This document shows, in pieces, positions 5,362 to 37,582 of a stretch of DNA of 64,000 nucleotides; position 1 is the first letter of the stretch; the number at the start of each line of letters is the position of its first letter. The position numbers and the translations under genes were made by a program. Below the pieces are notes generated by a model. It had not been told where the DNA came from. It saw only the letters and a program-made list of their open reading frames with translations, and did no database searches. This DNA comes from Candidatus Hydrogenedentes bacterium ADurb.Bin170 (lineage in GTDB: Bacteria; Hydrogenedentota; Hydrogenedentia; Hydrogenedentales; CAITNO01), in NCBI GenBank assembly GCA_002070275.1, contig MWCY01000011.1, positions 19,847-83,846 of the forward strand, written 5' to 3'.

Positions 5362-6036
5362 TTATACCATCATTACTACAAGATTCCGGTTGGATGTTTT
5401 GTCGGTTCGATAACTGAAAAACACACCGCCGCACACAGTACAGTGGGGCACAATATGAATATTGTGCCTGAAAACGCCCGCTTTTTCAAGTTGCGCACTG
5501 TTTGTGCCGGGGATATCGAGAAAGCGGTCCCGGCAGGCATACCCCGCCCTATGCCACTGCGCCGCCAACTCCGGAGAGACTTCGTAGCAGCAGCCATGGG
5601 CGCAGGGTCCGATCAGCGCCACAAGAGAAGAAGGCTGCGACCCGAAACGGTGCGTCAGAAGTGCCACTCCCGTCCCGGCAATATTACGGAAACTTCCCTC
5701 CCTACCGGCATGAAGAAGGCAGCCTGCCCGTACTAAGGGATCAAAAAGCAGCACAGGCGCACAATCCGCCACACTGACCCCTGCTGCGATCCCGGCTTTG
5801 CCCAGGAGTATTCCATCCGCTTCCAAAGAAGCGCCGCGCGCCTCTTCGGCACATACTACGGCAATGCCGTGTACCTGCCGCACCCGGACGGGACGTACGC
5901 CGGGTGCACCGGCCAATGTCATAAACGCTTCTGTATTGGGCACCGCCTCATCACGGCTGCCGCAGTCTCCGTCGCTTTTGTCGGACATTGCGGCAACAGA
6001 CAGCCCCGCCTCCTGCATGAGCGAAAAGTGTATCAT
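5362..6036 (-). CDS. pgeF: YfiH/PgeF family purine nucleoside phosphorylase/laccase-domain protein (DUF152)
   Basis: Motifs QVHG..V, ADG, ADCAPVLL, HAGREG. The track's M at 6054 is a TTG; an internal ATG lies at 6036. Confidence 0.75.
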   Translation of the reverse strand: MIHFSLMQEAGLSVAAMSDKSDGDCGSRDEAVPNTEAFMTLAGAPGVRPVRVRQVHGIAVVCAEEARGASLEADGILLGKAGIAAGVSVADCAPVLLFDPLVRAGCLLHAGREGSFRNIAGTGVALLTHRFGSQPSSLVALIGPCAHGCCYEVSPELAAQWHRAGYACRDRFLDIPGTNSAQLEKAGVFRHNIHIVPHCTVCGGVFFSYRTDKTSNRNLVVMMV

Positions 6037-6050
6037 GGCGCATTTTCGCC

Positions 6051-7439
6051 TCAAAGCACATATTGACTCAAATCGCGTTTTTCCGCGATTTCGGAAATCC
6101 TGCTTTCCACGAACTCCGCCGTGATCAAAACCTGCGTCCCTTTGCGGTTGGATGCATCAAAAGAGATGTCTTCCAGCACATACTCTAAAATCGTATGAAG
6201 CCGCCTTGCGCCGATATCTTCGGTTTCACTGTTCACGCGCTCACAGATTTCCGCAATTTTTACCAGAGCCTCCGGTTCAAAATGCAGGGTGACTTCTTCC
6301 GCTTCAAGCATGGCCTGATATTGTTTGATCAGCGAATACTCCGTCTCGGTGAGAATACGCAAAAAATCATCCCGGCTCAGGCTGTCGAGCTCCACACGTA
6401 TGGGAAAGCGTCCCTGAAGTTCCGGGATCAGATCGGACACCTGGGTCATGTGAAAAGCGCCGGCTGCAATGAAAAGAATGTGATCGGTTCGGACTGAACC
6501 GTATTTCGTCAGTACCGTGCTGCCTTCCACGATGGGGAGGATATCGCGCTGGACACCCTCGCGGGACACGTCGGGACCATGTCCCCGATGCCCACGTCCT
6601 GCTATCTTGTCTATTTCATCCAGAAAAACAATACCGCTGTTTTCTGCATTCTCAACACCGCGCCGCGCGGCAAGGTCCATGTCAATCAGCTCATTGAACG
6701 CTTCCTGCAGAAGCACTTCCCGCGCTTCCGCCACGGTGACCTTTTTCGCTTTCCGCCGTTTCGGCGTCATGTGCCCGAAGACATCCTGCAGATTCATGCC
6801 CATTTCTTCCATGCCGCTGGAAGCAAATATCTGGAGCATGGCGTTGTCCTTGGACTCGGTAACGGTCAGTTCCACTTCCTTGTCTTCCAGATCCCCTGCC
6901 GCCAGTTTGGTTCGGATCAGGTTTCTTGCTTTCTCCTGAGCGGCAGCCCCCCGTTCAACAGGCGGCTCATCTCCGGCATCCGGGTCGGCAGGATTGTATC
7001 CTCCTCTTTCAGCATGCCGCATGGTCGGGGGCAGCAGAAGATCCAGAAGACGCTGCTCCGCCTTTTCCTTTGCCCGGGCTTCACATTCCCCACGCAGCTC
7101 CTCCCGCGCCATTTTCACCGCCACTTCCGTAAGTTCCCGGATCATGGACTCGCAATCCCGTCCCACATAACCCACTTCTGTAAATTTGCTCGCTTCCACT
7201 TTAACAAAGGGCGCTTGTGCAAGTTTGGACAGGCGGCGTGCAATTTCCGTTTTACCGACACCGGTGGTTCCTATCATAATGATATTTTTAGGAACTACTT
7301 CTTCCTGAAGTGCTTCAGGCAGCTGAAGGCGGCGCCAGCGGTTTCGCAGCGCAATCGCAACTTTTCGTTTCGCCTGGGTTTGACCGACAATATATTTGTC
7401 CAGTTCCTGAACAATTTCCTGAGGGGTTAATGACTGCAT
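6051..7439 (-). CDS. hslU: ATP-dependent protease ATPase subunit HslU
   Basis: The N-terminus TPQEIVQELDKYIVGQTQAKRKVAIALRNRWRR, the Walker A motif GTTGVGKTEIARRLSKL and a C-terminal AAA+ lid. Confidence 0.95.
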   Translation of the reverse strand: MQSLTPQEIVQELDKYIVGQTQAKRKVAIALRNRWRRLQLPEALQEEVVPKNIIMIGTTGVGKTEIARRLSKLAQAPFVKVEASKFTEVGYVGRDCESMIRELTEVAVKMAREELRGECEARAKEKAEQRLLDLLLPPTMRHAERGGYNPADPDAGDEPPVERGAAAQEKARNLIRTKLAAGDLEDKEVELTVTESKDNAMLQIFASSGMEEMGMNLQDVFGHMTPKRRKAKKVTVAEAREVLLQEAFNELIDMDLAARRGVENAENSGIVFLDEIDKIAGRGHRGHGPDVSREGVQRDILPIVEGSTVLTKYGSVRTDHILFIAAGAFHMTQVSDLIPELQGRFPIRVELDSLSRDDFLRILTETEYSLIKQYQAMLEAEEVTLHFEPEALVKIAEICERVNSETEDIGARRLHTILEYVLEDISFDASNRKGTQVLITAEFVESRISEIAEKRDLSQYVL

Positions 7440-28749: not shown

Positions 28750-29190
28750 ATGAATTCAGAATCCGCAAAACAACGATTTCAGGAAGCCAACAGGCTGTTT
28801 AAAAACAGGCAGTATGAAAAAGCGCTGGAACTGCTTCAGCAGCTGAACAGAGAATTTCCCAATACGGAAAACATCATGTATGCAGCCGCTTTATCGCTGG
28901 AAAAACTGGGCAGCATCGATGAAGCCAAATATCTCTGCCACAGCATGATCAGGAACTTCGAATCAGTCAGAGCGCAGGAACTGCTCAATCATCTGGAAGT
29001 GGCACCACGGGTTGCCGCTCCTCAGGGCGATATCCCGGATGCAGCCGTGGAAGTCCTGCCGAAGCATGCGCGGCTTGAAGATATCGGCAACCCGTCTGTC
29101 AAACGGCGCAACAGGATGCTTGTCGTTGCCGTTGTTGTACTGGCAGCCCTCGTACTGGCGCTGCCTTTTCTGCTGAAGATGCTCAGATAA
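28750..29190 (+). CDS. TPR-like small protein with C-terminal TM anchor
   Basis: A YEKALELLQQL TPR-like helix pair. C-terminal MLVVAVVVLAALVLALPFLL. Confidence 0.5.
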   Translation: MNSESAKQRFQEANRLFKNRQYEKALELLQQLNREFPNTENIMYAAALSLEKLGSIDEAKYLCHSMIRNFESVRAQELLNHLEVAPRVAAPQGDIPDAAVEVLPKHARLEDIGNPSVKRRNRMLVVAVVVLAALVLALPFLLKMLR

Positions 29191-29213
29191 CAGGGCCGTA
29201 AAAGCAGTACGCT

Positions 29214-29555
29214 TTAATGATCGCAGACATTCTCTCCTGATTCCAGAGTGCCCTCCAGGTAGCGCTGCACCAGGGCTTCCACCGGATCGGCCGGTGCGCC
29301 GATAACCACTTCGATATTGTTCTCGGCAAAAAGCGCCTGGGCACGTGCCCCCATGCCGCCGGCAATAATCACCTGGGCATTGCGCTCAGCAAGCCAGCGC
29401 GGCAGCAGCCCGGGCTGATGCTCCGGCGCATCGACCACATCCACTTTCAGAATGCTTTTCTGCTCCGGATCCGTATCCACGAGCGCAAACTGGGCACAGT
29501 GCCCGAAATGAAGGGCAAGATGCCCCTGAACTACCGGTATAGCAACACGCATCAT
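29214..29555 (-). CDS. NifX/NafY/NifB-C-terminal family (dinitrogenase FeMo-cofactor-binding-like, PF02579) protein
   Basis: MRVAIPV...HFGHCAQFALVD...VIIAGGMGARAQALFAENNIEVV is the canonical PF02579 pattern. Confidence 0.85.
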   Translation of the reverse strand: MMRVAIPVVQGHLALHFGHCAQFALVDTDPEQKSILKVDVVDAPEHQPGLLPRWLAERNAQVIIAGGMGARAQALFAENNIEVVIGAPADPVEALVQRYLEGTLESGENVCDH

Positions 29556-29613
29556 TTTCTCTCCTGTTGTTTTTCAGAGTCGGGCGACACATCCGGTGCA
29601 ACCTCGACCTTCC

Positions 29614-30012
29614 TTATGCTTCTGTTTTCATCTGCTTTACTGATGCCGATGCCTGATAATTTTCCAGCGCAGCACGCAGTGTATTCGATGCCAGCAGTGC
29701 ACAGTGCCGGTGCGCTTCCGGCATACCGCCCAGCGCATTCAGAATATCCTGCTGTGAGATTTCTTTTGCTTCCGCAACGGGCCTGCCTTCTGCAAGTTCT
29801 GTCGCCATGCTTCCGCAGGCGCGGGAAGGACCGCAGCCTGTCGTGGTAAACGAAGCGGCACTCACAATACCTTCATCGACCTGCACCCAGAACTCCATCG
29901 TGTCTCCGCAGGGACCGGTTATTCTGGCGTAGCCGTCCGGCTCCTGCAGTTCATCATAATTTCTTGGATTTCTGAAACGTTCCAATGCCTTGGCGCTGTA
30001 GTTTTCTTCCAT
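29614..30012 (-). CDS. IscU/NifU N-terminal-domain-like Fe-S cluster scaffold
   Basis: NPRNYDEL...ITGPCGDTMEF...TTGCGPSRACGSMATE...HCALLASN, with the three scaffold Cys and the His. Confidence 0.85.
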   Translation of the reverse strand: MEENYSAKALERFRNPRNYDELQEPDGYARITGPCGDTMEFWVQVDEGIVSAASFTTTGCGPSRACGSMATELAEGRPVAEAKEISQQDILNALGGMPEAHRHCALLASNTLRAALENYQASASVKQMKTEA

Positions 30013-30041
30013 CTGACTTGTTGTCCCGTATCTAAAAAAGA

Positions 30042-30980
30042 TCAGCCGCCGTTTCCGCTTTCTGCATCTCCGGCATCAGGCGCTGTACCGTCAAGCATTG
30101 AAGCCACCCGGCACCAGATTTCACGGATCGCCTCAGCTGCGGCACCGCCATAATCAAGAACAGTTTTCCCCGCAACCTGCGCCTCCGTCATCCGGCGGTC
30201 ATAACCGATCCGTCCGACCGGACGGGCGCCCATTGAAAGAGCGACCGCTTCAATGCTTTCCGTCAATTCAGAATTGATATCCCACTTGTTGACACACACC
30301 GCCACGGGCACATTAAAATGCTTCGCCAGCCGGGCAACCCGCTCCAGATCGTGCTGTCCGCTTAACGTCGGTTCCGTGATGATCAATGCGAGCGATGTGC
30401 CTGTAATGGAAGCGATCACCGGACAGCCGATTCCGGGAGGACCGTCGATAATCAGTTTTGCAATCCCCTCCTTTTCCGCTCTGTCTCTTGCGGCACGGCG
30501 CACCGTCGACACCAGCTTGCCCGAGTTTTCCGCGGCAATACCCAGCTTCGCATGAACCATGGGCCCGCAGGGTGTCGAAGAAACATACCACTCCCCTGCC
30601 GTACATTCAGGAAAATCAATGGCGGCGGCAGGGCACCAGTCAACACAGACGCCACAGCCCTCACAGGACAGCGGATCCACTGTATACCGGACATCCGCTC
30701 CCGTATCCTCCCGCCGGATACCCTCAAAGCGGCACCGTTCATAACAGTCTCCGCATCGGGTGCAGTCCTCCTGCCTGATTACCGCCTGATGCCCGCTCCT
30801 GAATTCATAATGCTCTTCCGGCTCCGGGTGCAGCAGCAAATGCAGGTCGGCCGCATCCACGTCACAGTCTGCCAGCACCGCCCTCCCGGCAAGAGACGCA
30901 AAGGCGGCCGTAAGGCTTGTCTTGCCCGTTCCGCCTTTTCCGCTGATGATGACCAGCTCCCGGATATCATGCCTGCTCAT
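30042..30980 (-). CDS. MinD-superfamily P-loop ATPase with inserted 2x[4Fe-4S] ferredoxin domain (COG1149-like), copy 1
   Basis: Deviant Walker A ISGKGGTGKTS. CTRCGDCYERC and CEGCGVCVDWCP ferredoxin motifs. Confidence 0.85.
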   Translation of the reverse strand: MSRHDIRELVIISGKGGTGKTSLTAAFASLAGRAVLADCDVDAADLHLLLHPEPEEHYEFRSGHQAVIRQEDCTRCGDCYERCRFEGIRREDTGADVRYTVDPLSCEGCGVCVDWCPAAAIDFPECTAGEWYVSSTPCGPMVHAKLGIAAENSGKLVSTVRRAARDRAEKEGIAKLIIDGPPGIGCPVIASITGTSLALIITEPTLSGQHDLERVARLAKHFNVPVAVCVNKWDINSELTESIEAVALSMGARPVGRIGYDRRMTEAQVAGKTVLDYGGAAAEAIREIWCRVASMLDGTAPDAGDAESGNGG

Positions 30981-31920
30981 AGCGTTCCCCTATACCGAAA
31001 AACAGCTTGTTTTCCCGTTCCATAACACACAGCCTCCCCTCTTTTACCAGCCTGTCCAACAGCTTCGCCGTTTCAAGCCGATGAAAACCCAGCCCTTCCG
31101 CAATCTCCTCCAGGGGACAGGGACGCCGCCTCAGCATTTCCAGCACAGGTGCCTCCTGAGGCAGCAGCACGCCGCCGCTGTCCGGAATGTAACGGGGCGA
31201 AATAATTTCCGCCTCAGGTTCAAAAAAAGAAACATAGCGCTCCATCACGGAAAAAGAAACCGCTTTTACACGGCTCATGGCGGGCGGACGCTCCACCGTA
31301 TTGATCTGCACTTTATCCGGCCGGATCAGCCGCACCTGTGCCGCAATTTCGCGCACGCTGTCTTCATCATCATTGATACCGTCCATTAGAAAGACTTCGA
31401 GCCACAGGGCACCGGAAAACTCATTTCGGAAAGCAATCAGCCCTTCCAGCATTTTTGCAAAAGAAAGTCCCGCGACAGGCCGGTCTATTTTCTGAAAAAG
31501 ACGCTCATTTCCCGCATCCAGCGAGGGTAAAACAACATCCGCATGAAGGAGCGCATCCCGCACTTCCTGCTGCCAGAAGAGCGCACCGTTGGTAATGACT
31601 GCAACAGGAACAGACGTCAGTGATTTTATTTTCTGAATCAGCTCTCCGAGTCCCGTATGCAGGGCAGGCTCCCCGGCGCCCGAAATCGTTATGTAATCCG
31701 GCGCCGGATGTGTGGCAAGAAAAGCAGCCACTTCCTCCAGAACGGCTTCCACGTCCACATAGGCATCGCGCTGCATGGTGTGGCAGGTGGTGCGCCCCTG
31801 CTCGCAGTAGATGCAGTCATAGGGGCAGGTTTTCGCCGGAATCAGATCCACGCCCAGCGATCTGCCAAGGCGGCGTGATACTACAGGACCAAAGATGAAG
31901 GAATGTTTACGGGAAGTCAT
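30967..31920 (-). CDS. radical SAM protein (COG0731-like) with C-terminal winged-helix domain
   Basis: FGPVVSRRLGRSLGVDL...CPYDCIYC (CxxxCxxC). A C-terminal LEEIAEGLGFHRLETAKLLDRLVKEGRL wHTH. Overlaps its neighbours by 14 and 4 bp. Confidence 0.85.
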   Translation of the reverse strand: MTSRKHSFIFGPVVSRRLGRSLGVDLIPAKTCPYDCIYCEQGRTTCHTMQRDAYVDVEAVLEEVAAFLATHPAPDYITISGAGEPALHTGLGELIQKIKSLTSVPVAVITNGALFWQQEVRDALLHADVVLPSLDAGNERLFQKIDRPVAGLSFAKMLEGLIAFRNEFSGALWLEVFLMDGINDDEDSVREIAAQVRLIRPDKVQINTVERPPAMSRVKAVSFSVMERYVSFFEPEAEIISPRYIPDSGGVLLPQEAPVLEMLRRRPCPLEEIAEGLGFHRLETAKLLDRLVKEGRLCVMERENKLFFGIGERYEQA

Positions 31921-32786
31921 GAACGCACCGCCTTTCCTTTCTCACGCTGCCCCGCACCGTCCCGAATTTTTCCGAGCAATTCCATAAAGGATGCTCTGTA
32001 TTCAGGCAACGCATCAACGATCAGGGCACCTCCGGAGTAGGCAGCTGCAATACGGCGATCCTCGGGAAGTGTCAGCAATACCGGAATATCTTCTGCATCA
32101 CAATAATCCCGCACCCTGGCATCGCCCACGTCCGCACGGTTAATCACTACACCGAAAGGAAGCCCGAGGGTGCGAACCGTCTCCACAGCAAGCTGCAGAT
32201 CATTGAGACAGAATGGAGTCGGTTCGGTAACCAGCACAACGTAATCCATGCCCTTCAGGGTCGTGATCACAGGACAGGAGGTCCCCGGCGGCGCATCATA
32301 AATAATCACTGCCGCATCGGGCGCTTTCGCTTTTACCGCTCGGATCAAAGGCGGCGACATAGCAGCGCCCACGCGCAGCGTCCCCTGCACAAAATGTAAA
32401 TCGCCCGCCATTCCACGGCTGACCGTACCGATCGCATGGGAAGATTCAGTCAAGGCTTTTTCAGGGCAGGCAGGCACACAGCCGCCGCAACCGTGACATA
32501 GCTCCGCAAAAACAATCAGCTTTCCCGCCACACAGGCAAGCGCATTGAAACGACAGACTTCCACGCATTTGCCGCAGCCGGTACATAACGCCGGATCCAC
32601 CTGCGGCACAGGAATTCCCGCAGTTTCAGAAAATGAAAGCTCCGGCTTCAGAAAAAGATGACCGTTTGGCGCCTCCACATCGCAATCCACATAAACAGTT
32701 TCGTCACCCTCCGTAAGGGCAGCCAGATTGGCGGCAACGGTCGTTTTGCCTGTTCCGCCTTTTCCTGATGCGATGGCTATGTGCAT
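31917..32786 (-). CDS. MinD-superfamily P-loop ATPase with inserted 2x[4Fe-4S] ferredoxin domain, copy 2 (start MHIAIASGKGGTGKT; the track ORF is over-extended)
   Basis: IASGKGGTGKTT Walker A, plus CTGCGKCVEVC and CHGCGGCVPACP. Confidence 0.8.
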   Translation of the reverse strand: MHIAIASGKGGTGKTTVAANLAALTEGDETVYVDCDVEAPNGHLFLKPELSFSETAGIPVPQVDPALCTGCGKCVEVCRFNALACVAGKLIVFAELCHGCGGCVPACPEKALTESSHAIGTVSRGMAGDLHFVQGTLRVGAAMSPPLIRAVKAKAPDAAVIIYDAPPGTSCPVITTLKGMDYVVLVTEPTPFCLNDLQLAVETVRTLGLPFGVVINRADVGDARVRDYCDAEDIPVLLTLPEDRRIAAAYSGGALIVDALPEYRASFMELLGKIRDGAGQREKGKAVRS

Positions 32787-33006
32787 GAAAGAAAAAATAT
32801 CCTGATGGTTCTGCCTGAATGGAAGTTTCCGTTTTTCAGGACACTGTCCCGGCAATTCCGAAACCTGTCGGGGCCGTCGGGAGCGACTCCGGTTCCGGAA
32901 TTGCCGATTGAACGGACAGTGCGTCAGTAAGGAGAAAAGAGAAACTCTATAATTAACATGCCTGTCGGGGGTCAGACAAAGGGTCTGAGCAGGAGCAGTT
33001 GCCTGC

Positions 33007-33375
33007 TCAAACCCAATGGCCATCCACAGCGGCAGCATGCATTTCCGCGAGGGCATCACGGCGCCACGCCTGCAGCGCCTCCGAAATCGGTACTTCATCC
33101 GAATGATAAACCCGTATGGATGATGCAGCAAATACAGTAAAGGCTTTGGGGCCGCAATGCCCTGTAACGAGAGCACTTGCTCCCGCTTTCACTACGGCCT
33201 GCGCTGCCTGTATGCCTGCTCCCTGAGGCGCGTTGACATTCTGCTGATTCTCCACCACCGTGTACTCGTCTGTGTCGGTGTCATAAATTAGAAAGCCATC
33301 GGCACGCCCGAAACGGGAACATACAAGCGCATTCAGATCTTTTCCTGATGTCGAAAATGCAATTTTCATAATCAT
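33007..33375 (-). CDS. NifX/NafY-like (PF02579) protein
   Basis: MKIAFSTSGKDL...FGRADGFLIYD...ALVTGHCGPKAF. Confidence 0.75.
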   Translation of the reverse strand: MIMKIAFSTSGKDLNALVCSRFGRADGFLIYDTDTDEYTVVENQQNVNAPQGAGIQAAQAVVKAGASALVTGHCGPKAFTVFAASSIRVYHSDEVPISEALQAWRRDALAEMHAAAVDGHWV

Positions 33376-33418
33376 TTCTTTTCCGGCAGCCGTGCAGGGC
33401 ACTGCTGCTTCCGCTGCG

Positions 33419-33703
33419 TCAGCGGTCAGATGACTTTTCAAGAGAAGCCAGACGGTCCTGTACTTCTTCCAGTGCGCCCTGAAGCCGGGCGGCCTGTTCG
33501 CGCAGGGACTGTGACTCTGTTTCGGAACTTAAACCGAAACCACGACCGAAACCACGACCGAAACCCATACCGCCGCGCATACCGCGGCCTGAACCCGCAC
33601 CACGGCGCGCAGCCATACCACGACCGTCACGCAGGCACCCGCCTGCACCACGCCCCGTCAGGGCGCCTTTTCCGCAAGGTCCTGTTCCATCTCTTCCAGG
33701 CAT
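33419..33703 (-). CDS. DUF5320-like Gly/Arg-rich protein with C-terminal coiled coil
   Basis: MPGRDGTGPCGKGALTGRGAGGC... Gly/Arg-rich N-terminus. LREQAARLQGALEEVQDRLASLEK coiled coil. This family is usually found beside PF02579 genes. Confidence 0.65.
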   Translation of the reverse strand: MPGRDGTGPCGKGALTGRGAGGCLRDGRGMAARRGAGSGRGMRGGMGFGRGFGRGFGLSSETESQSLREQAARLQGALEEVQDRLASLEKSSDR

Positions 33704-33706
33704 AAT

Positions 33707-34393
33707 CTAGTTCCTTTCTTCTTTGTCCAGACTGCCTCTGTTCAGCAGCCATTCTTTCACATCCATCGGAGACATCTGCTTCTGCTGCGACAGCGCCCGG
33801 AACGTCGATCCGGGATCCGCCGTGAAACCCGCTTCCTGCAGGCGACTCAGTGTGTCTTCCAGAAGAAGCCCGGCATCGTCACAAAATTCCTGCACGGTCA
33901 TGCGACCGACACCTGTACCATGACCTGATGCAGGATGCACCGCCTCTGCAGAGAGCGCACCGGCACAGCTTCCAGCTTTCTCCTCTTCGGTCAATGCTGT
34001 AAGGAAGCTGAACGGCGGCACTTCAAAAATGGCACCTGCCGACAGCAGCAGAAAAAGAAGGAGTGCCGTGACCGCTTCTTTTTTCAAATGAAGCCGCTGT
34101 TTTAAAAACAGATAGCGCAACAGAATGCGCCAGTTGAAGTACACATGAATCAACCCGGCAACAACAAAAGTGCAGGCCATAATGATGTGCAGGGCATTCC
34201 ACTGATCTTTCGACAGCAGCAAAACACGCCAGCCTGTTTCCCGGGCAATGCGACAGGACGGAGCAAGGTAAAGCACGAGACCGGACACCGCCAGTGTCAG
34301 AAAAACCAGGCTGATCAGAAAACTGGTAAGCCCTCTGCCGTGCCAGGGCGTTTTCTGTTTGTCTGTTGCCTCTTGTGTGCTCACTGTCATCAT
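33707..34393 (-). CDS. small integral membrane protein (4 TM, conserved His in helices; DUF4405-like?) with soluble C-terminal domain
   Basis: Hydrophobic helices LTSFLISLVFLTLAVSGLVLYL, LHIIMACTFVVAGLIHVYF, ALLLFLLLSAGAIF. Confidence 0.65.
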   Translation of the reverse strand: MMTVSTQEATDKQKTPWHGRGLTSFLISLVFLTLAVSGLVLYLAPSCRIARETGWRVLLLSKDQWNALHIIMACTFVVAGLIHVYFNWRILLRYLFLKQRLHLKKEAVTALLLFLLLSAGAIFEVPPFSFLTALTEEEKAGSCAGALSAEAVHPASGHGTGVGRMTVQEFCDDAGLLLEDTLSRLQEAGFTADPGSTFRALSQQKQMSPMDVKEWLLNRGSLDKEERN

Positions 34394-34399
34394 GCTACC

Positions 34400-34906
34400 T
34401 CACTCATGCCCGAAGGGGCGGTTGCAGCCGGGACATACGGCTGATTCCGGATGCCTCCGGCAGTTGGGAAGACGGCAGCCGCACTCAGGACATACGGAAT
34501 GCCCTCCAGAAAACCCGGGTTTGCCTCTGCCGTATCCCTGTCCTTTTCCGGCGCCGCACCGGCGCCCGCCGGAACCGCAGCCCGGCATGGCAAAAGCGCC
34601 GCTGCAGACAGTGCCTGCGAGCACTGCTGCCAGTATTTCTTCAACATCACCGGAGATAAACGGGATCAGCTGAATGCCGGCGGCAGAAAGCCAGTCGGCA
34701 AAACGCCGGGATACAGCGCCGCACACCAGCTGCCTTACGCCCAGTGCTTCAAGCTGTGAAAGCAGATTCTGTACGGTGCCTCCGGCAATTTCTTTTTCCT
34801 GACGGGACACCACAACCCCTTGCTGCAGCTCAACGACAAGAAACGTCCGGGCTGTATCCAGCACCGGAGAAATGCGTTGTTCCCTTACTGTCAGTGCAAT
34901 CTTCAT
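34400..34906 (-). CDS. NifX/NafY-like domain fused to Cys/Gly-rich zinc-ribbon-like tail
   Basis: An N-terminal PF02579-like MKIALTV...LVCGAVSRRF...LIPFISG. The tail GCGSGGRRCGAGKGQGYGRGKPGFSGGHSVCPECGCRLPNCRRHPESAVCPGC. Confidence 0.8.
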   Translation of the reverse strand: MKIALTVREQRISPVLDTARTFLVVELQQGVVVSRQEKEIAGGTVQNLLSQLEALGVRQLVCGAVSRRFADWLSAAGIQLIPFISGDVEEILAAVLAGTVCSGAFAMPGCGSGGRRCGAGKGQGYGRGKPGFSGGHSVCPECGCRLPNCRRHPESAVCPGCNRPFGHE

Positions 34907-34931
34907 CAGCAGTTCCTTGTATACCTTCTTA

Positions 34932-34947
34932 GAGCATACACCGTGCC
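34932..34947 (-). promoter_or_regulatory. candidate sigma-54 (-24/-12) promoter TGGCAC-GGTGT-ATGCT for the NifX/MinD/radical-SAM operon
   Basis: The minus strand reads TGGCACGgtgtATGCT with correct N5 spacing. GG and GC are conserved and the -12 reads ATGC instead of TTGC. It lies ~25 nt upstream of the ATG at 34906. Confidence 0.5.
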
Positions 34948-35020
34948 AATGATCAAAATATTTTTAACATACTGATATTAAATGAATTACAGGAGAGCGG
35001 GATCGCATTTTCGGCGAGAT

Positions 35021-35088
35021 AAGTCGCATTAATGCGACTATTAGAGATGCAACAGTCGCAATAGTGCGACTTATTTGCGACGCGTCGC
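35021..35088. promoter_or_regulatory. three dyad-symmetric GTCGCA/TGCGAC sites (candidate enhancer/UAS for the adjacent sigma-54 activator)
   Basis: AGTCGCAttaaTGCGACT (35021-35038), AGTCGCAatagTGCGACT (35053-35070), TGCGACgcGTCGCA (35075-35088). Centres are ~32 bp apart, at about -108 and -140 from the -12 element. Confidence 0.5.
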
Positions 35089-36450
35089 AGGAGGGAGCGT
35101 CAGGCCCAGAGCACGAACCTTGCGGAACAGCGTGCTCTTATGCATGCCCAGCAGATCAGCCGCTTTCTGCCTGTTTCCATCGCACGCTTTCAGGGCATCG
35201 AGAATGGCACGGGCCTCCGCTTCCTGAACCGCATTGTTCAGCGACGGAGCAGTCCCAGCGCCGGAGCGGCGGTAAAAAGCCTGCATCGCTTCAGGCAGAC
35301 ATCCGACATCAATGAGCGGCCTGTCACACAGCACGAAGGCATGTTCAATGCTGTTCTCCAGTTCACGGATATTACCCGGATAGTCGTAGGACATCAGCAG
35401 GCGCATTGCCTCCGCAGTGACCCCTTCTACCGTTTTATTCTGCCGGAGATGATTGTTACGACGGATAAACCGGTCCACGAGCAGGGGAATATCTTCCCGG
35501 CGCTCCCGGAGCGGCGGCAGTTCCAGCCTGATCACATTGATTCTGTAATAAAGATCCTGCCTGAAAAGTCCTTCCTGAACCAGTGCGCCGAGCGATTTGT
35601 TGGTGGCGGCAATGATGCGCACATCTGTGTGAAATGCGCGGGTTGCGCCCAGCGGCTCATACTGCTTTTCCTGGAGCACCCGCAGCAGCCGAACCTGCAT
35701 GGCAGGGCTGATATCCCCTATTTCATCCAGAAAAAGGCTCCCTTTTTCCGCCAGAGCAAAGCGGCCGGGCTTGTCTTTGTCCGCTCCGGTAAAAGCACCT
35801 GCCTGATACCCGAAGAGCTCGGACTCCAGCAGCGTATCAGGCAATGCGCCGCAGTTGATGCCAAGAAAAGGTCCTTTGTGCCGGCCGCTCAGATCATGAA
35901 TTGCCCGTGCCAGCAGCTCCTTGCCGGTACCTGTTTCTCCTTCTATGACAACAGGCACCTCGCTGGCTGCCACCTGCGGCAGCATCTGAAAGAGTTTTTC
36001 CATGGCGGCACTTCTGCTGACCATGTCGCCCAAGTCATAGCGATGTTCAATTTCACGCCGCAGCTCTTCCACAAGACTCAGATCACGAAAGGTTTCCACA
36101 CCTCCCACAACATTTCCCCTTTCATCCTTCAGCAGTGCAGTTGAAAGACTGATGGGGATGCGCTCTCCTGCCGCATCGACGATATAGACAGATTTGTTAA
36201 TGATGGGTTCCCCCGAATCCAGCGTGTGACGCAGGGCGCATTCCTCTTCGCAGGTGCTGGCGCGAAAAACTTCGCAGCAGCGCCTGCCCAGTGCTTCTTC
36301 CCGGGGAATACCGGTGATCTCTTCGGCGGCGCGGTTGAAGGAGGTAATACGCCATCCATGATCTACCGTGAATACTCCGTCGGAAATACTTTCCAGAATA
36401 ATCTCCGTGCTCTCCGGCGGCAGCATATCTTTGGAAAAAGGCTGATCCAT
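35071..36450 (-). CDS. sigma-54-dependent transcriptional activator (PAS - AAA+ - Fis-type HTH), PAS domain with Cys4 cluster
   Basis: GAFTGA motif, ESELFGY, Walker A GETGTGKE, and a C-terminal HTH. The PAS has CC-x6-C-x3-C (RRCCEVFRASTCEEEC). Confidence 0.9.
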   Translation of the reverse strand: MDQPFSKDMLPPESTEIILESISDGVFTVDHGWRITSFNRAAEEITGIPREEALGRRCCEVFRASTCEEECALRHTLDSGEPIINKSVYIVDAAGERIPISLSTALLKDERGNVVGGVETFRDLSLVEELRREIEHRYDLGDMVSRSAAMEKLFQMLPQVAASEVPVVIEGETGTGKELLARAIHDLSGRHKGPFLGINCGALPDTLLESELFGYQAGAFTGADKDKPGRFALAEKGSLFLDEIGDISPAMQVRLLRVLQEKQYEPLGATRAFHTDVRIIAATNKSLGALVQEGLFRQDLYYRINVIRLELPPLRERREDIPLLVDRFIRRNNHLRQNKTVEGVTAEAMRLLMSYDYPGNIRELENSIEHAFVLCDRPLIDVGCLPEAMQAFYRRSGAGTAPSLNNAVQEAEARAILDALKACDGNRQKAADLLGMHKSTLFRKVRALGLTLPPATRRK

Positions 36451-36532
36451 GGCACCTCATGTTTTCAGAAAAAAGCGCAGCATTGCACAGCCTCAGTGTA
36501 GACCCTTGACCGGCAGCGCTTCAACCTGCACA

Positions 36533-36578
36533 ATAAAAAAACCTGAAAAGGAGCGACGTTCCCGTTCTCCTTTTCAGG
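36533..36578 (-). terminator. rho-independent terminator downstream of the sugar-binding protein gene
   Basis: cctgaaaaggag...ctccttttcagg hairpin followed by T9 on the minus strand. Confidence 0.7.
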
Positions 36579-36604
36579 CATTGCGTCAAAGAAATTTCAA
36601 AGGG

Positions 36605-37582
36605 CTATTTGCCCGTATTCAGCAGCTTCTGCACTTCCGGACTTTCCAGATTTTCCAGCGTCACCACCGTGACTCCCGTGTCAATGATCGGCGGCACCTC
36701 TTCCCCTTTGAGCGATGCCACAGCCGCTTTCACGCCTTCATAGCCCATCTTGAAAGGATCCTGCACAATCAGTGCCTGAATCACTCCTTCTTTCAGCGCA
36801 TTGATCTCTTCTTCGGTCGCATCAAAGCCGACCAGTTTGACCTTTCCGGCTTTTCCTGCCGCCCGGAGTGCCTGAGCTGCACCGATGGCGCCGGGTTCGT
36901 TGGTTGCGAAAATACCGCCCAGATCGGGATGTGCCGTCAGCATATCGGAGGTCACATTCATTCCTGTACTGACATCACTCTGGGTATAGTTCGTGGCAAC
37001 AATTTTCATGCCCGGGAATTCAGTCACCCCTTCCTTGAAACCGCGCTCACGGATTTCAGACGTTGCAGCGCCGGAAATGAAGGGAAGCAGCCCCAGTTCG
37101 CCCTGTCCTCCCATGAGATCCGCCAGCACGCGTGCCGCCATTTTGGCGCCTTCGAGATTATCCGTGGCAACGAGACTTTTCGGAATATCCGACTTCACAC
37201 CCGAATCAACCATGACGACAGGAATGCCCGCCCTGTCCGCCTGTGCGATGACGGCACCCAGCGCATTTTCATCGCACGCCGCCATGACAATGGCACTCAC
37301 GCCCCGAGTAATCATGTCCTGCACAATATTGATTTGCTGGGCGATCTCGGTTTCCTTGGGAGGACCCTGCCAGACCACAGAGGCACCGCACTCGGCTGCA
37401 GCCGCTTCCGCTCCCGCCTTCACACCCAGCCAGAACTGATGAGACAAACCTTTGGGGATCACAGCAATTTCCAGAGCACCGCTCTTCGCCCCGCCGGAAC
37501 CGGAACTGCCGCTTCCACTGCCGCCGCAGCCGGCAAGACAAATCAGCGACAACAGAACTGCGCCTGTCGTTATGTATCTCAT
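36605..37582 (-). CDS. ABC transporter periplasmic sugar-binding lipoprotein (RbsB/monosaccharide-binding family)
   Basis: Lipobox LAGC plus a Gly/Ser linker. A PBP type I fold (VIPKGLSHQFW...VDSG...VGFD). Confidence 0.85.
   Translation of the reverse strand: MRYITTGAVLLSLICLAGCGGSGSGSSGSGGAKSGALEIAVIPKGLSHQFWLGVKAGAEAAAAECGASVVWQGPPKETEIAQQINIVQDMITRGVSAIVMAACDENALGAVIAQADRAGIPVVMVDSGVKSDIPKSLVATDNLEGAKMAARVLADLMGGQGELGLLPFISGAATSEIRERGFKEGVTEFPGMKIVATNYTQSDVSTGMNVTSDMLTAHPDLGGIFATNEPGAIGAAQALRAAGKAGKVKLVGFDATEEEINALKEGVIQALIVQDPFKMGYEGVKAAVASLKGEEVPPIIDTGVTVVTLENLESPEVQKLLNTGK

Follow-up and report, generated by a model that had tools for sequence, protein, structure and literature searches.

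A 64,000-nucleotide stretch of a Candidatus Hydrogenedentes contig (MWCY01000011.1), hereafter the window, encodes a predicted member of the OrpR family of redox regulators. The gene lies at 35071-36450 on the minus strand, and its 459-residue product is a sigma-54 enhancer-binding protein (EBP) with a cysteine-rich PAS sensor domain. Judged by orthology, we give a probability of roughly 85% to the reading that this regulator belongs to the OrpR family and would place the adjacent orp-like operon under redox control by means of an Fe-S cluster.

OrpR (DVU2106), found in Desulfovibrio vulgaris Hildenborough (hereafter DvH), belongs to the sigma-54 EBPs and has PAS, AAA+ and helix-turn-helix (HTH) domains (Fievet et al. 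2021, PMC8359166). Its PAS domain carries a redox-sensitive [4Fe-4S] cluster, and the residues C52, C61 and C65 are fully conserved and required for signal perception; an acidic residue at position 54 (D/E54) is conserved as well (PMC8359166). The purified protein is brown, with bands at 410 and 320 nm and the electron paramagnetic resonance (EPR) behaviour of an Fe-S protein, and the spectroscopy indicates a [4Fe-4S]2+ cluster that is turned into [3Fe-4S]1+ by chemical oxidants (PMC8359166). Earlier work on OrpR was published by Fievet et al. in 2011 and 2014, and PMC3897727 is cited here for the orp promoters.

An initial annotation, made from the DNA sequence, had proposed an Fe-S cluster on the PAS cysteines, by which a metallocofactor operon would be coupled to redox state or O2. 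This proposal is supported by orthology with OrpR (PMC8359166), because the regulator matches OrpR in domain architecture, in the cysteine spacing C-x8-C-x3-C with an acidic residue at +2, in sequence and in genomic context, including orp neighbours and the order of the cis elements. The hosts differ: OrpR was described in Desulfovibrio, whereas the regulator belongs to Candidatus Hydrogenedentes.

Domain architecture and the PAS cysteine motif

The gene and its domains, as called by Pfam (the source of all domain calls for the regulator and its neighbours), are the following.

35071-36450, minus strand: orpR-like gene, encoding a 459-residue sigma-54 EBP (PAS, AAA+, HTH_8)
36076-36399, minus strand: PAS sensor domain, residues 18-125 (PAS_9 3.9e-14, PAS_4 4.1e-13)
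36238-36279, minus strand: C58-C59-E60-x6-C67-x3-C71, predicted Fe-S ligand set, aligning with OrpR C52/R53/D54/C61/C65
35524-36021, minus strand: Sigma54_activat AAA+ ATPase domain, residues 144-309 (PF00158, 2.3e-67)
Residues 315-393, minus strand: AAA_lid_14
35110-35226, minus strand: Fis-type HTH_8 DNA-binding domain, residues 409-447 (PF02954, 1.1e-10)

Pfam gives no match to a receiver domain (Response_reg) or to kinase domains anywhere in the 459 residues, and the output consists of Sigma54_activat and HTH_8. The protein was thus described correctly at the outset as a sigma-54 activator without a receiver, with the PAS domain as its only sensory module.

As a comparator we used the metagenome contig L147, which was found by scanning contigs with the published OrpR operator GGGCGYRTTTTGCGCCC. 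L147 contains two such operators 1.65 kb apart, with an EBP gene (5725-7101) between them. When read from MALPRD, the encoded protein has cysteines exactly at positions 52, 61 and 65 and an aspartate at 54. Three published IHF-site sequences of the DvH orp promoters (CATCACAAGCTCG, AATCAGAATAAAA and AAGATGTTTGATT; PMC3897727) are present verbatim. The two published operators, the 52/61/65 numbering and the verbatim IHF-site sequences identify L147, at the level of sequence, as DvH itself or a strain nearly identical to it.

The regulator and the L147 OrpR share 51% identity over 446 residues (E 7e-158) and the Pfam families PAS, Sigma54_activat and AAA_lid_14. Between the PAS domains alone the identity rises to 56% (E 3.5e-51), as compared to 35-41% for the PAS domains of EBPs in the same set that lack the three cysteines (the triad). 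In the alignment of ALGRRCCEVFRASTCEEECALR from the regulator with ALGRRCRDVFHSSVCDGACVLR from the L147 OrpR, residues C58, C67 and C71 coincide with C52, C61 and C65, and E60 coincides with D54. The remaining cysteine of the regulator, C59, is aligned to R53, so that the regulator carries an extra cysteine where OrpR has an arginine.

The PAS cysteines, at positions 58, 59, 67 and 71, are located inside LGRRCCEVFRASTCEEECALRH. The initial annotation had recognized these four clustered residues and written them as CC-x6-C-x3-C; the cluster stands, but seven residues separate C59 from C67, and the motif reads CC-x7-C-x3-C. We assessed its conservation in two sets. The first is an alignment of 81 sequences, comprising the window protein and its best 80 relatives among GTDB species representatives. 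These relatives come from metagenome-assembled genomes (MAGs) labelled Hydrogenedentota, Desulfobacterota, Spirochaetota, Planctomycetota, Aminicenantes and Zixibacteria, share 44-70% identity with the regulator and include no Desulfovibrio. The second set contains the best 120 nearest homologs from a collection of 5.8 billion proteins.

In the alignment, C58 is conserved in 78/81 sequences, C67 in 76/81 and C71 in 78/81, and position 60 is occupied by E or D in 72/81. The C-x8-C-x3-C pattern is present in 120/120 nearest homologs. Because the triad and E/D60 are conserved in the alignment and the triad is conserved in the nearest homologs, the cysteine cluster is not, on sequence grounds, a chance feature. 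A lack of conservation in orthologs had been named beforehand as the result that would speak against an Fe-S site; with the triad kept at 76-78 of 81, the Fe-S proposal survives.

The fourth cysteine behaves differently. Position 59 is a cysteine in only 5 of the 81 aligned sequences, and the CC pair is found in 52/120 nearest homologs, concentrated among the top matches. C59 is almost invariant in homologs with at least about 68% identity, whereas Desulfovibrio and most other lineages have R, S, W or K at this position. The four-cysteine signature proposed initially therefore holds family-wide for C58, C67 and C71, while C59 is restricted to the closest clade. As read from these sequences, the family signature is three cysteines (58, 67 and 71) together with E/D60, and C59 is a clade-specific extra cysteine. 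It may serve as a fourth cluster ligand in this Hydrogenedentes-centred clade, a suggestion that we regard as tentative and rather unlikely. If true, the clade would have an all-cysteinyl cluster with a different midpoint potential and a different O2 or sulfide lability than Desulfovibrio OrpR, in which the cluster is held by three Cys and Asp/Glu, or has an open site.

Four close cysteines, including the vicinal CC pair, could also form disulfides or bind zinc, and the residues would then constitute a thiol/disulfide switch or a structural Zn site, without an Fe-S cluster in this lineage. This reading is countered by DvH OrpR, whose residues align with these and which is brown and shows the 410/320 nm bands and Fe-S EPR. 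In addition, most family members keep the triad and the acidic residue but have no cysteine at the vicinal position 59, a pattern that fits a common cluster site better than a CC disulfide. We consider a cluster-free site very improbable, and continue with the OrpR-type Fe-S site.

The same motif is found in other architectures. EBPs of about 800 residues with two or three tandem copies of a Cys-triad PAS domain occur among the sequences P0006, P0008, P0048 (Desulfogranum japonicum), P0055, P0122 and P0123. One 348-residue protein in that set is made up of three Cys-triad PAS domains alone. The tandem copies indicate that the predicted Fe-S PAS module has been duplicated and reused outside the single-PAS OrpR.

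The AlphaFold2 model of residues 1-140 has a mean pLDDT of 87.3 and a canonical PAS topology. A short helix (residues 58-61) opens with C58 and C59, C67 is located in the following loop and C71 lies just before the next helix (72-79). The model places the cysteines on the Ealpha-Falpha side of the canonical cofactor pocket. Its top structural matches are the PAS domains of DosP, LOV and NifL (Foldseek E about 1e-8, TM 0.6-0.77), at a sequence identity of 15-27%. In these domains the cofactor pocket is found at the same place as C58 of the regulator, but they bind flavin or haem and none has the Cys triad. In a sequence alignment, C58 falls on the flavin-adduct (photoactive) cysteine of a LOV domain. 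The LOV motif GXNCRFLQ is not kept around it, and the regulator reads GRRCCEVFR. A PDB sequence search returned no solved close relative of the PAS domain, only generic PAS, LOV and phytochrome matches with E >= 1e-4.

The cysteine cluster had been likened initially to NreB-type sensors. In NreB of Staphylococcus and Bacillus, a cytoplasmic PAS kinase acting through NreC, an Fe-S cluster bound to cysteines in a similar region of the PAS domain (residues about 58-78) controls the output. The comparison is valid for NreB as an Fe-S PAS analogue, but not as a member of the same family, as motif and output differ (PMC13478379). We rejected NreB membership since both the C-x2-C-x11-C(-x2-C) motif and the HisKA_3/HATPase output with NreC are absent; beyond the PAS fold, no specific sequence relationship is detectable.

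NreB also provides the precedent for a different signal. A site with three cysteines could hold a cluster whose fourth position is open or labile, sensing a small ligand, for example sulfide (HS-), rather than redox potential as such. In B. licheniformis NreB, the PAS-bound [2Fe-2S] cluster has three Cys ligands, and sulfide is sensed through an exchangeable sulfur ligand (PMC13478379). The OrpR family conserves three cysteines only, and N2 sparging alone switched DvH OrpR off, which its authors link to the removal of H2S (PMC8359166). Against this, the C-x8-C-x3-C spacing differs from the C-x2-C-x11-C of NreB, and the output is an AAA+ domain instead of a histidine kinase. The DvH OrpR cluster reads as [4Fe-4S]2+ going to [3Fe-4S]1+ with chemical oxidants (PMC8359166), and the fourth site could be filled by E/D60 or, in this clade, by C59. 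Sulfide sensing appears improbable to us, and we retain redox sensing by an OrpR-type cluster as the preferred reading.

Promoter region and operators

The 34907-35070 region between the regulator and the next gene contains four predicted cis elements.

35055-35070, no strand assigned: distal operator (upstream activating sequence) GTCGCAATAGTGCGAC, perfect GTCGCA-N4-TGCGAC, directly after the orpR stop codon
35023-35038, no strand assigned: proximal operator (upstream activating sequence) GTCGCATTAATGCGAC, perfect GTCGCA-N4-TGCGAC, 32 bp from the distal operator
34965-34977, minus strand: IHF-consensus site TATCAGTATGTTA, zero mismatches to WATCARNNNNTTR, between the operators and the promoter
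34933-34948, minus strand: sigma-54 (-24/-12) promoter TGGCACGGTGTATGCT, 1 mismatch to the consensus

The regulator was thought from the beginning to be encoded directly upstream of its probable target and co-directional with it. This agrees with the layout found here: behind the -24/-12 promoter, the same strand carries the next gene, with its start at 34906. The promoter ends 27 nt before the ATG at 34906 and is the only match to the sigma-54 consensus with at most one mismatch in the window.

The two operators are the only matches to GTCGCA-N4-TGCGAC in the 64 kb, where 0.32 are expected by chance. Their spacing of 32 bp is close to the 31 bp of the tandem operators in L147. With up to 2 mismatches allowed, the sequence is found in 27 of 33 orthologous intergenic regions. 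Its density in these regions is 4.63 per kb, as compared to 0.083 per kb in all locus DNA, a 56-fold difference. The operators are often paired, 32-43 bp apart, and in most of these regions they are located upstream of a -24/-12 element; equivalently placed -24/-12 promoters are found in most orthologous loci.

In the DvH orp promoters, the EBP site spans -131/-88, functional IHF sites are located at -79/-43 and the sigma-54 element at about -12 (PMC3897727). The window shares this order of operator, IHF site and sigma-54 promoter, at comparable distances. By analogy, we infer that the IHF site at 34965-34977 is functional; it is one of 6 exact matches to the IHF consensus in the window.

The operators themselves differ. 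The DvH operator GGGCGYRTTTTGCGCCC has a 3-bp spacer, whereas the window operator has other arms and a 4-bp spacer. No match to GGGCGYRTTTTGCGCCC is found near the locus even with 3 mismatches, and two 3-mismatch matches far off in the window are attributable to chance. In our own reading of the sequences, the variant operator would reflect co-evolution of the HTH domain and its site within the OrpR family, and gives no ground for exclusion.

Both operators lie downstream of orpR and, unlike in DvH, do not overlap with the promoter of orpR itself. The region upstream of orpR (36451-36604) contains no OrpR operator. With operators downstream of the gene and none upstream, autoregulation in the DvH style is not expected, and autorepression of that kind is unlikely as far as the sequence can tell. 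A sigma-70 scan upstream of orpR gave no convincing promoter; a weak TTGAAG-N18-TACACT, below the threshold of the scan, can be read before the orpR start. In the same region, on the minus strand, the gene for a periplasmic binding protein ends in a hairpin and a T-run that were read by eye, and a terminator scan gave no hit there.

The orp-like operon and its occurrence across phyla

Downstream of orpR, between 34906 and 29214, nine genes share its strand.

34400-34906, minus strand: FeMo-co-domain protein with Cys-rich tail (Orp7-like), predicted first target gene (Nitro_FeMo-Co 1.4e-08)
33707-34393, minus strand: DUF4405 membrane protein (PF14358, 2.2e-14)
33419-33703, minus strand: DUF5320 small Gly/Arg-rich protein, Orp5-like by position (PF17253, 1.3e-13)
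33007-33441, minus strand: FeMo-co-domain protein, Orp8/orange-protein-like (Nitro_FeMo-Co 9.5e-24)
31917-32786, minus strand: MinD/CbiA P-loop ATPase with an inserted 2x[4Fe-4S] ferredoxin domain, Orp4-like (CbiA + Fer4)
30967-31920, minus strand: radical SAM enzyme (PF04055, 5.3e-16)
30042-30980, minus strand: second MinD/CbiA-ferredoxin ATPase, Orp3-like (CbiA + Fer4)
29614-30012, minus strand: NifU_N/IscU-type Fe-S scaffold (PF01592, 3.6e-29)
29214-29555, minus strand: stand-alone FeMo-co-domain protein resembling the C-terminal part of MrpORP/Orp9, last gene of the cluster (L147 Orp9 match)

The cluster is followed by a convergent gene (28750-29190, plus strand). The upstream neighbour of orpR, the periplasmic binding protein, is unrelated, and all orp-like genes are located downstream. 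By family, the operon products read as oxygen-fragile Fe-S and heterometal-cluster proteins.

Five of the products match L147 Orp7, Orp8, Orp4, Orp3 and the C-terminal domain of Orp9, with 33-52% identity and the same Pfam families. The first protein is 33% identical to the product of the L147 gene after orpR, which shares the weak Nitro_FeMo-Co match and a Cys-rich tail; a FeMo-co-domain gene is conserved in this first position behind orpR across related loci. The Orp8-like protein (33007-33441) has 43% identity to its L147 counterpart by position. The two ATPases are 47% (31917-32786) and 51% (30042-30980) identical to the products of L147 7791-8696, with the same Pfam make-up, and L147 8693-9484, respectively. 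The last protein matches residues 370-487 of L147 Orp9 with 52% identity, and positions 265-365 of the MrpORP model NF041136 (1.2e-35).

Two gene starts require adjustment. The open reading frame at 33007-33441 probably has its true start near 33375. The longest form of the Orp4-like reading frame extends up to 33176, and the homologous start is MHIAIASGKGG.

The tail of the first protein (residues about 105-168) is rich in Gly and Cys (…CGSGGRRCGAG…CPECGC…CPGC…), resembling a zinc ribbon or a metal-binding tail. The corresponding tail of the L147 protein is shorter.

The other genes are less uniformly shared. The cytochrome-b561-like DUF4405 gene separates the first FeMo-co-domain gene from the DUF5320 gene. 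In a tblastn search, none of the 80 related loci showed a counterpart, and from this comparison the gene appears to have been added to the orp operon at this locus specifically. The DUF5320 gene is present at the same position in several related loci. Equating it with DvH Orp5 lacks statistical support: tblastn gave no match, and Pfam gave none for the L147 protein. The radical SAM gene occurs in a subset of related loci and not in the DvH orp operons, and its product reaches the cut-off of no NCBIfam equivalog. The NifU_N scaffold matches TIGR03419 (3.5e-31) below the cut-off and recurs downstream of orpR in many related loci.

A 220-bp gap within the cluster (32786-33014, minus strand) contains two strong hairpins, with an RNA fold z-score of -6.1. 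The first is a 13-bp stem at 33014-32981, directly after the stop codon of the FeMo-co-domain gene, and the second is a long imperfect inverted repeat at about 32922-32842. The element is unique in the window, and the gap has neither an Rfam match nor a sigma-54 promoter. An Rfam scan of 29000-37000 gave no matches. The hairpins could be a site of attenuation, processing or stabilisation that divides the cluster into two units of expression.

The association of orpR with orp genes extends to related loci. Where a triad-bearing locus has 3 kb or more of sequence downstream, orp-family genes are found there in 44/58 cases, and three or more orp families in 36/58. Four loci without the triad have at least 3 kb downstream; three of them have no orp family and one has a single family. 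A fifth triad-less locus, with 2,994 bp downstream only, has no orp family. The order that recurs across phyla is orpR, FeMo-co protein, (DUF5320), FeMo-co protein, MinD-Fer4 and MinD-Fer4, and the co-directional layout is common to most relatives outside Desulfovibrio.

OrpR-like genes with orp synteny (loci L001-L072 and L077) are located in MAGs labelled Hydrogenedentota, Spirochaetota (Treponema, Sphaerochaeta), Planctomycetota (Sedimentisphaerales) and Aminicenantes. In the Zixibacteria-type loci L070 and L072, an OrpR-like gene is present and the orp synteny is partial or displaced. Individual contigs among the related loci may be affected by MAG binning errors. The range of OrpR was given as delta-Proteobacteria only (PMC8359166). 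Contrary to that report, the combination of OrpR and the orp operon is, from these sequence assignments, clearly not confined to this group.

These data also bear on another reading, in which the protein is a generic PAS sigma-54 activator (ZraR-like, for example) that senses another ligand and carries incidental cysteines. It is suggested by the name 'ZraR' in nr and by the top NCBIfam matches, which are to other EBPs. The regulator has no receiver, and its cysteines are kept in several phyla and go together with orp genes. Conservation and synteny effectively refute the generic reading, to which we assign a nearly negligible probability, and favour the OrpR assignment.

The database labels were considered separately. 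The nr entry OQB33570.1 (Candidatus Hydrogenedentes) is 100% identical to the 459-residue regulator and is named 'Transcriptional regulatory protein ZraR'. We reject this label: with the NCBIfam ZraR model NF007689 the regulator reaches 309 bits, where the cut-off is 760, the match is limited to the AAA+ and HTH region, and a receiver domain is missing. NCBIfam contains no OrpR model, and neither the regulator nor the DvH-type OrpR reaches any equivalog cut-off, a result that is neutral with regard to the OrpR assignment.

Proposed mechanism and significance

In the mechanism that we propose, dimers or oligomers of the regulator would permanently occupy both GTCGCA-N4-TGCGAC operators past the orpR stop codon. 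An IHF-type bend would bring them to the sigma-54 holoenzyme at the -24/-12 promoter of the nine-gene operon. At low redox potential, the PAS domain would hold a [4Fe-4S]2+ cluster on C58, C67 and C71, with E60 or, in the C59 clade, possibly C59 as the fourth ligand. The cluster-loaded PAS domain would let the AAA+ domain hydrolyse ATP, and the promoter would open. A rise in redox potential or the entry of O2 would oxidise or degrade the cluster, upon which the PAS domain would block the AAA+ domain, turning the operon off while the regulator stays on the DNA.

Cluster binding, redox response, negative control by the PAS domain and the use of IHF are carried over in this scheme, by analogy, from D. 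vulgaris OrpR. In the logic proposed for OrpR, deletion of the sensor domain leads to constitutive activity, and DNA binding is unaffected (PMC8359166). The same logic, with an N-terminal sensor that represses the AAA+ domain, is found in EBPs of the NorR/DmpR type. Their sensors are unlike the OrpR PAS domain: NorR senses NO with a GAF domain containing mononuclear non-haem iron, and DmpR senses aromatic compounds with a V4R/XylR-N domain.

Several points weigh against the assignment. For this protein, the argument for a cluster and a redox response is one of orthology throughout, and the orthology was judged against the proxy contig L147. Only three of the cluster ligands are assigned, here as in DvH OrpR. 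The DvH operator is absent at the locus, where arms and spacer are different. In DvH, orpR is flanked by two divergent three-gene orp operons, whereas the window has one co-directional nine-gene cluster with no sign of DvH-style autoregulation. The Mrp/NBP35 ATPase domain of DvH Orp9 is absent from the window, and the cluster adds the DUF4405, radical SAM and NifU genes. These extra genes and the hairpin-containing gap make it uncertain that the single promoter also controls the distal genes.

As the redox mechanism was established for OrpR in 2021, the fundamental value of the present assignment is limited. What is new is that the family gains a taxonomically outlying member, whose operator is a variant and whose operon is laid out differently. 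OrpR members are mislabelled or generically named in databases, and a model built on C-x-[DE]-x6-C-x3-C would correct many of these entries. For comparing how the HTH domain and its site co-evolve, the lineage operator GTCGCA-N4-TGCGAC and the arrangement in a single operon are useful material. The naturally occurring C59 could help to identify the fourth cluster ligand. If C59 does serve in that role, it would be a natural tuning variant, able to decide the cluster coordination for the whole OrpR family.

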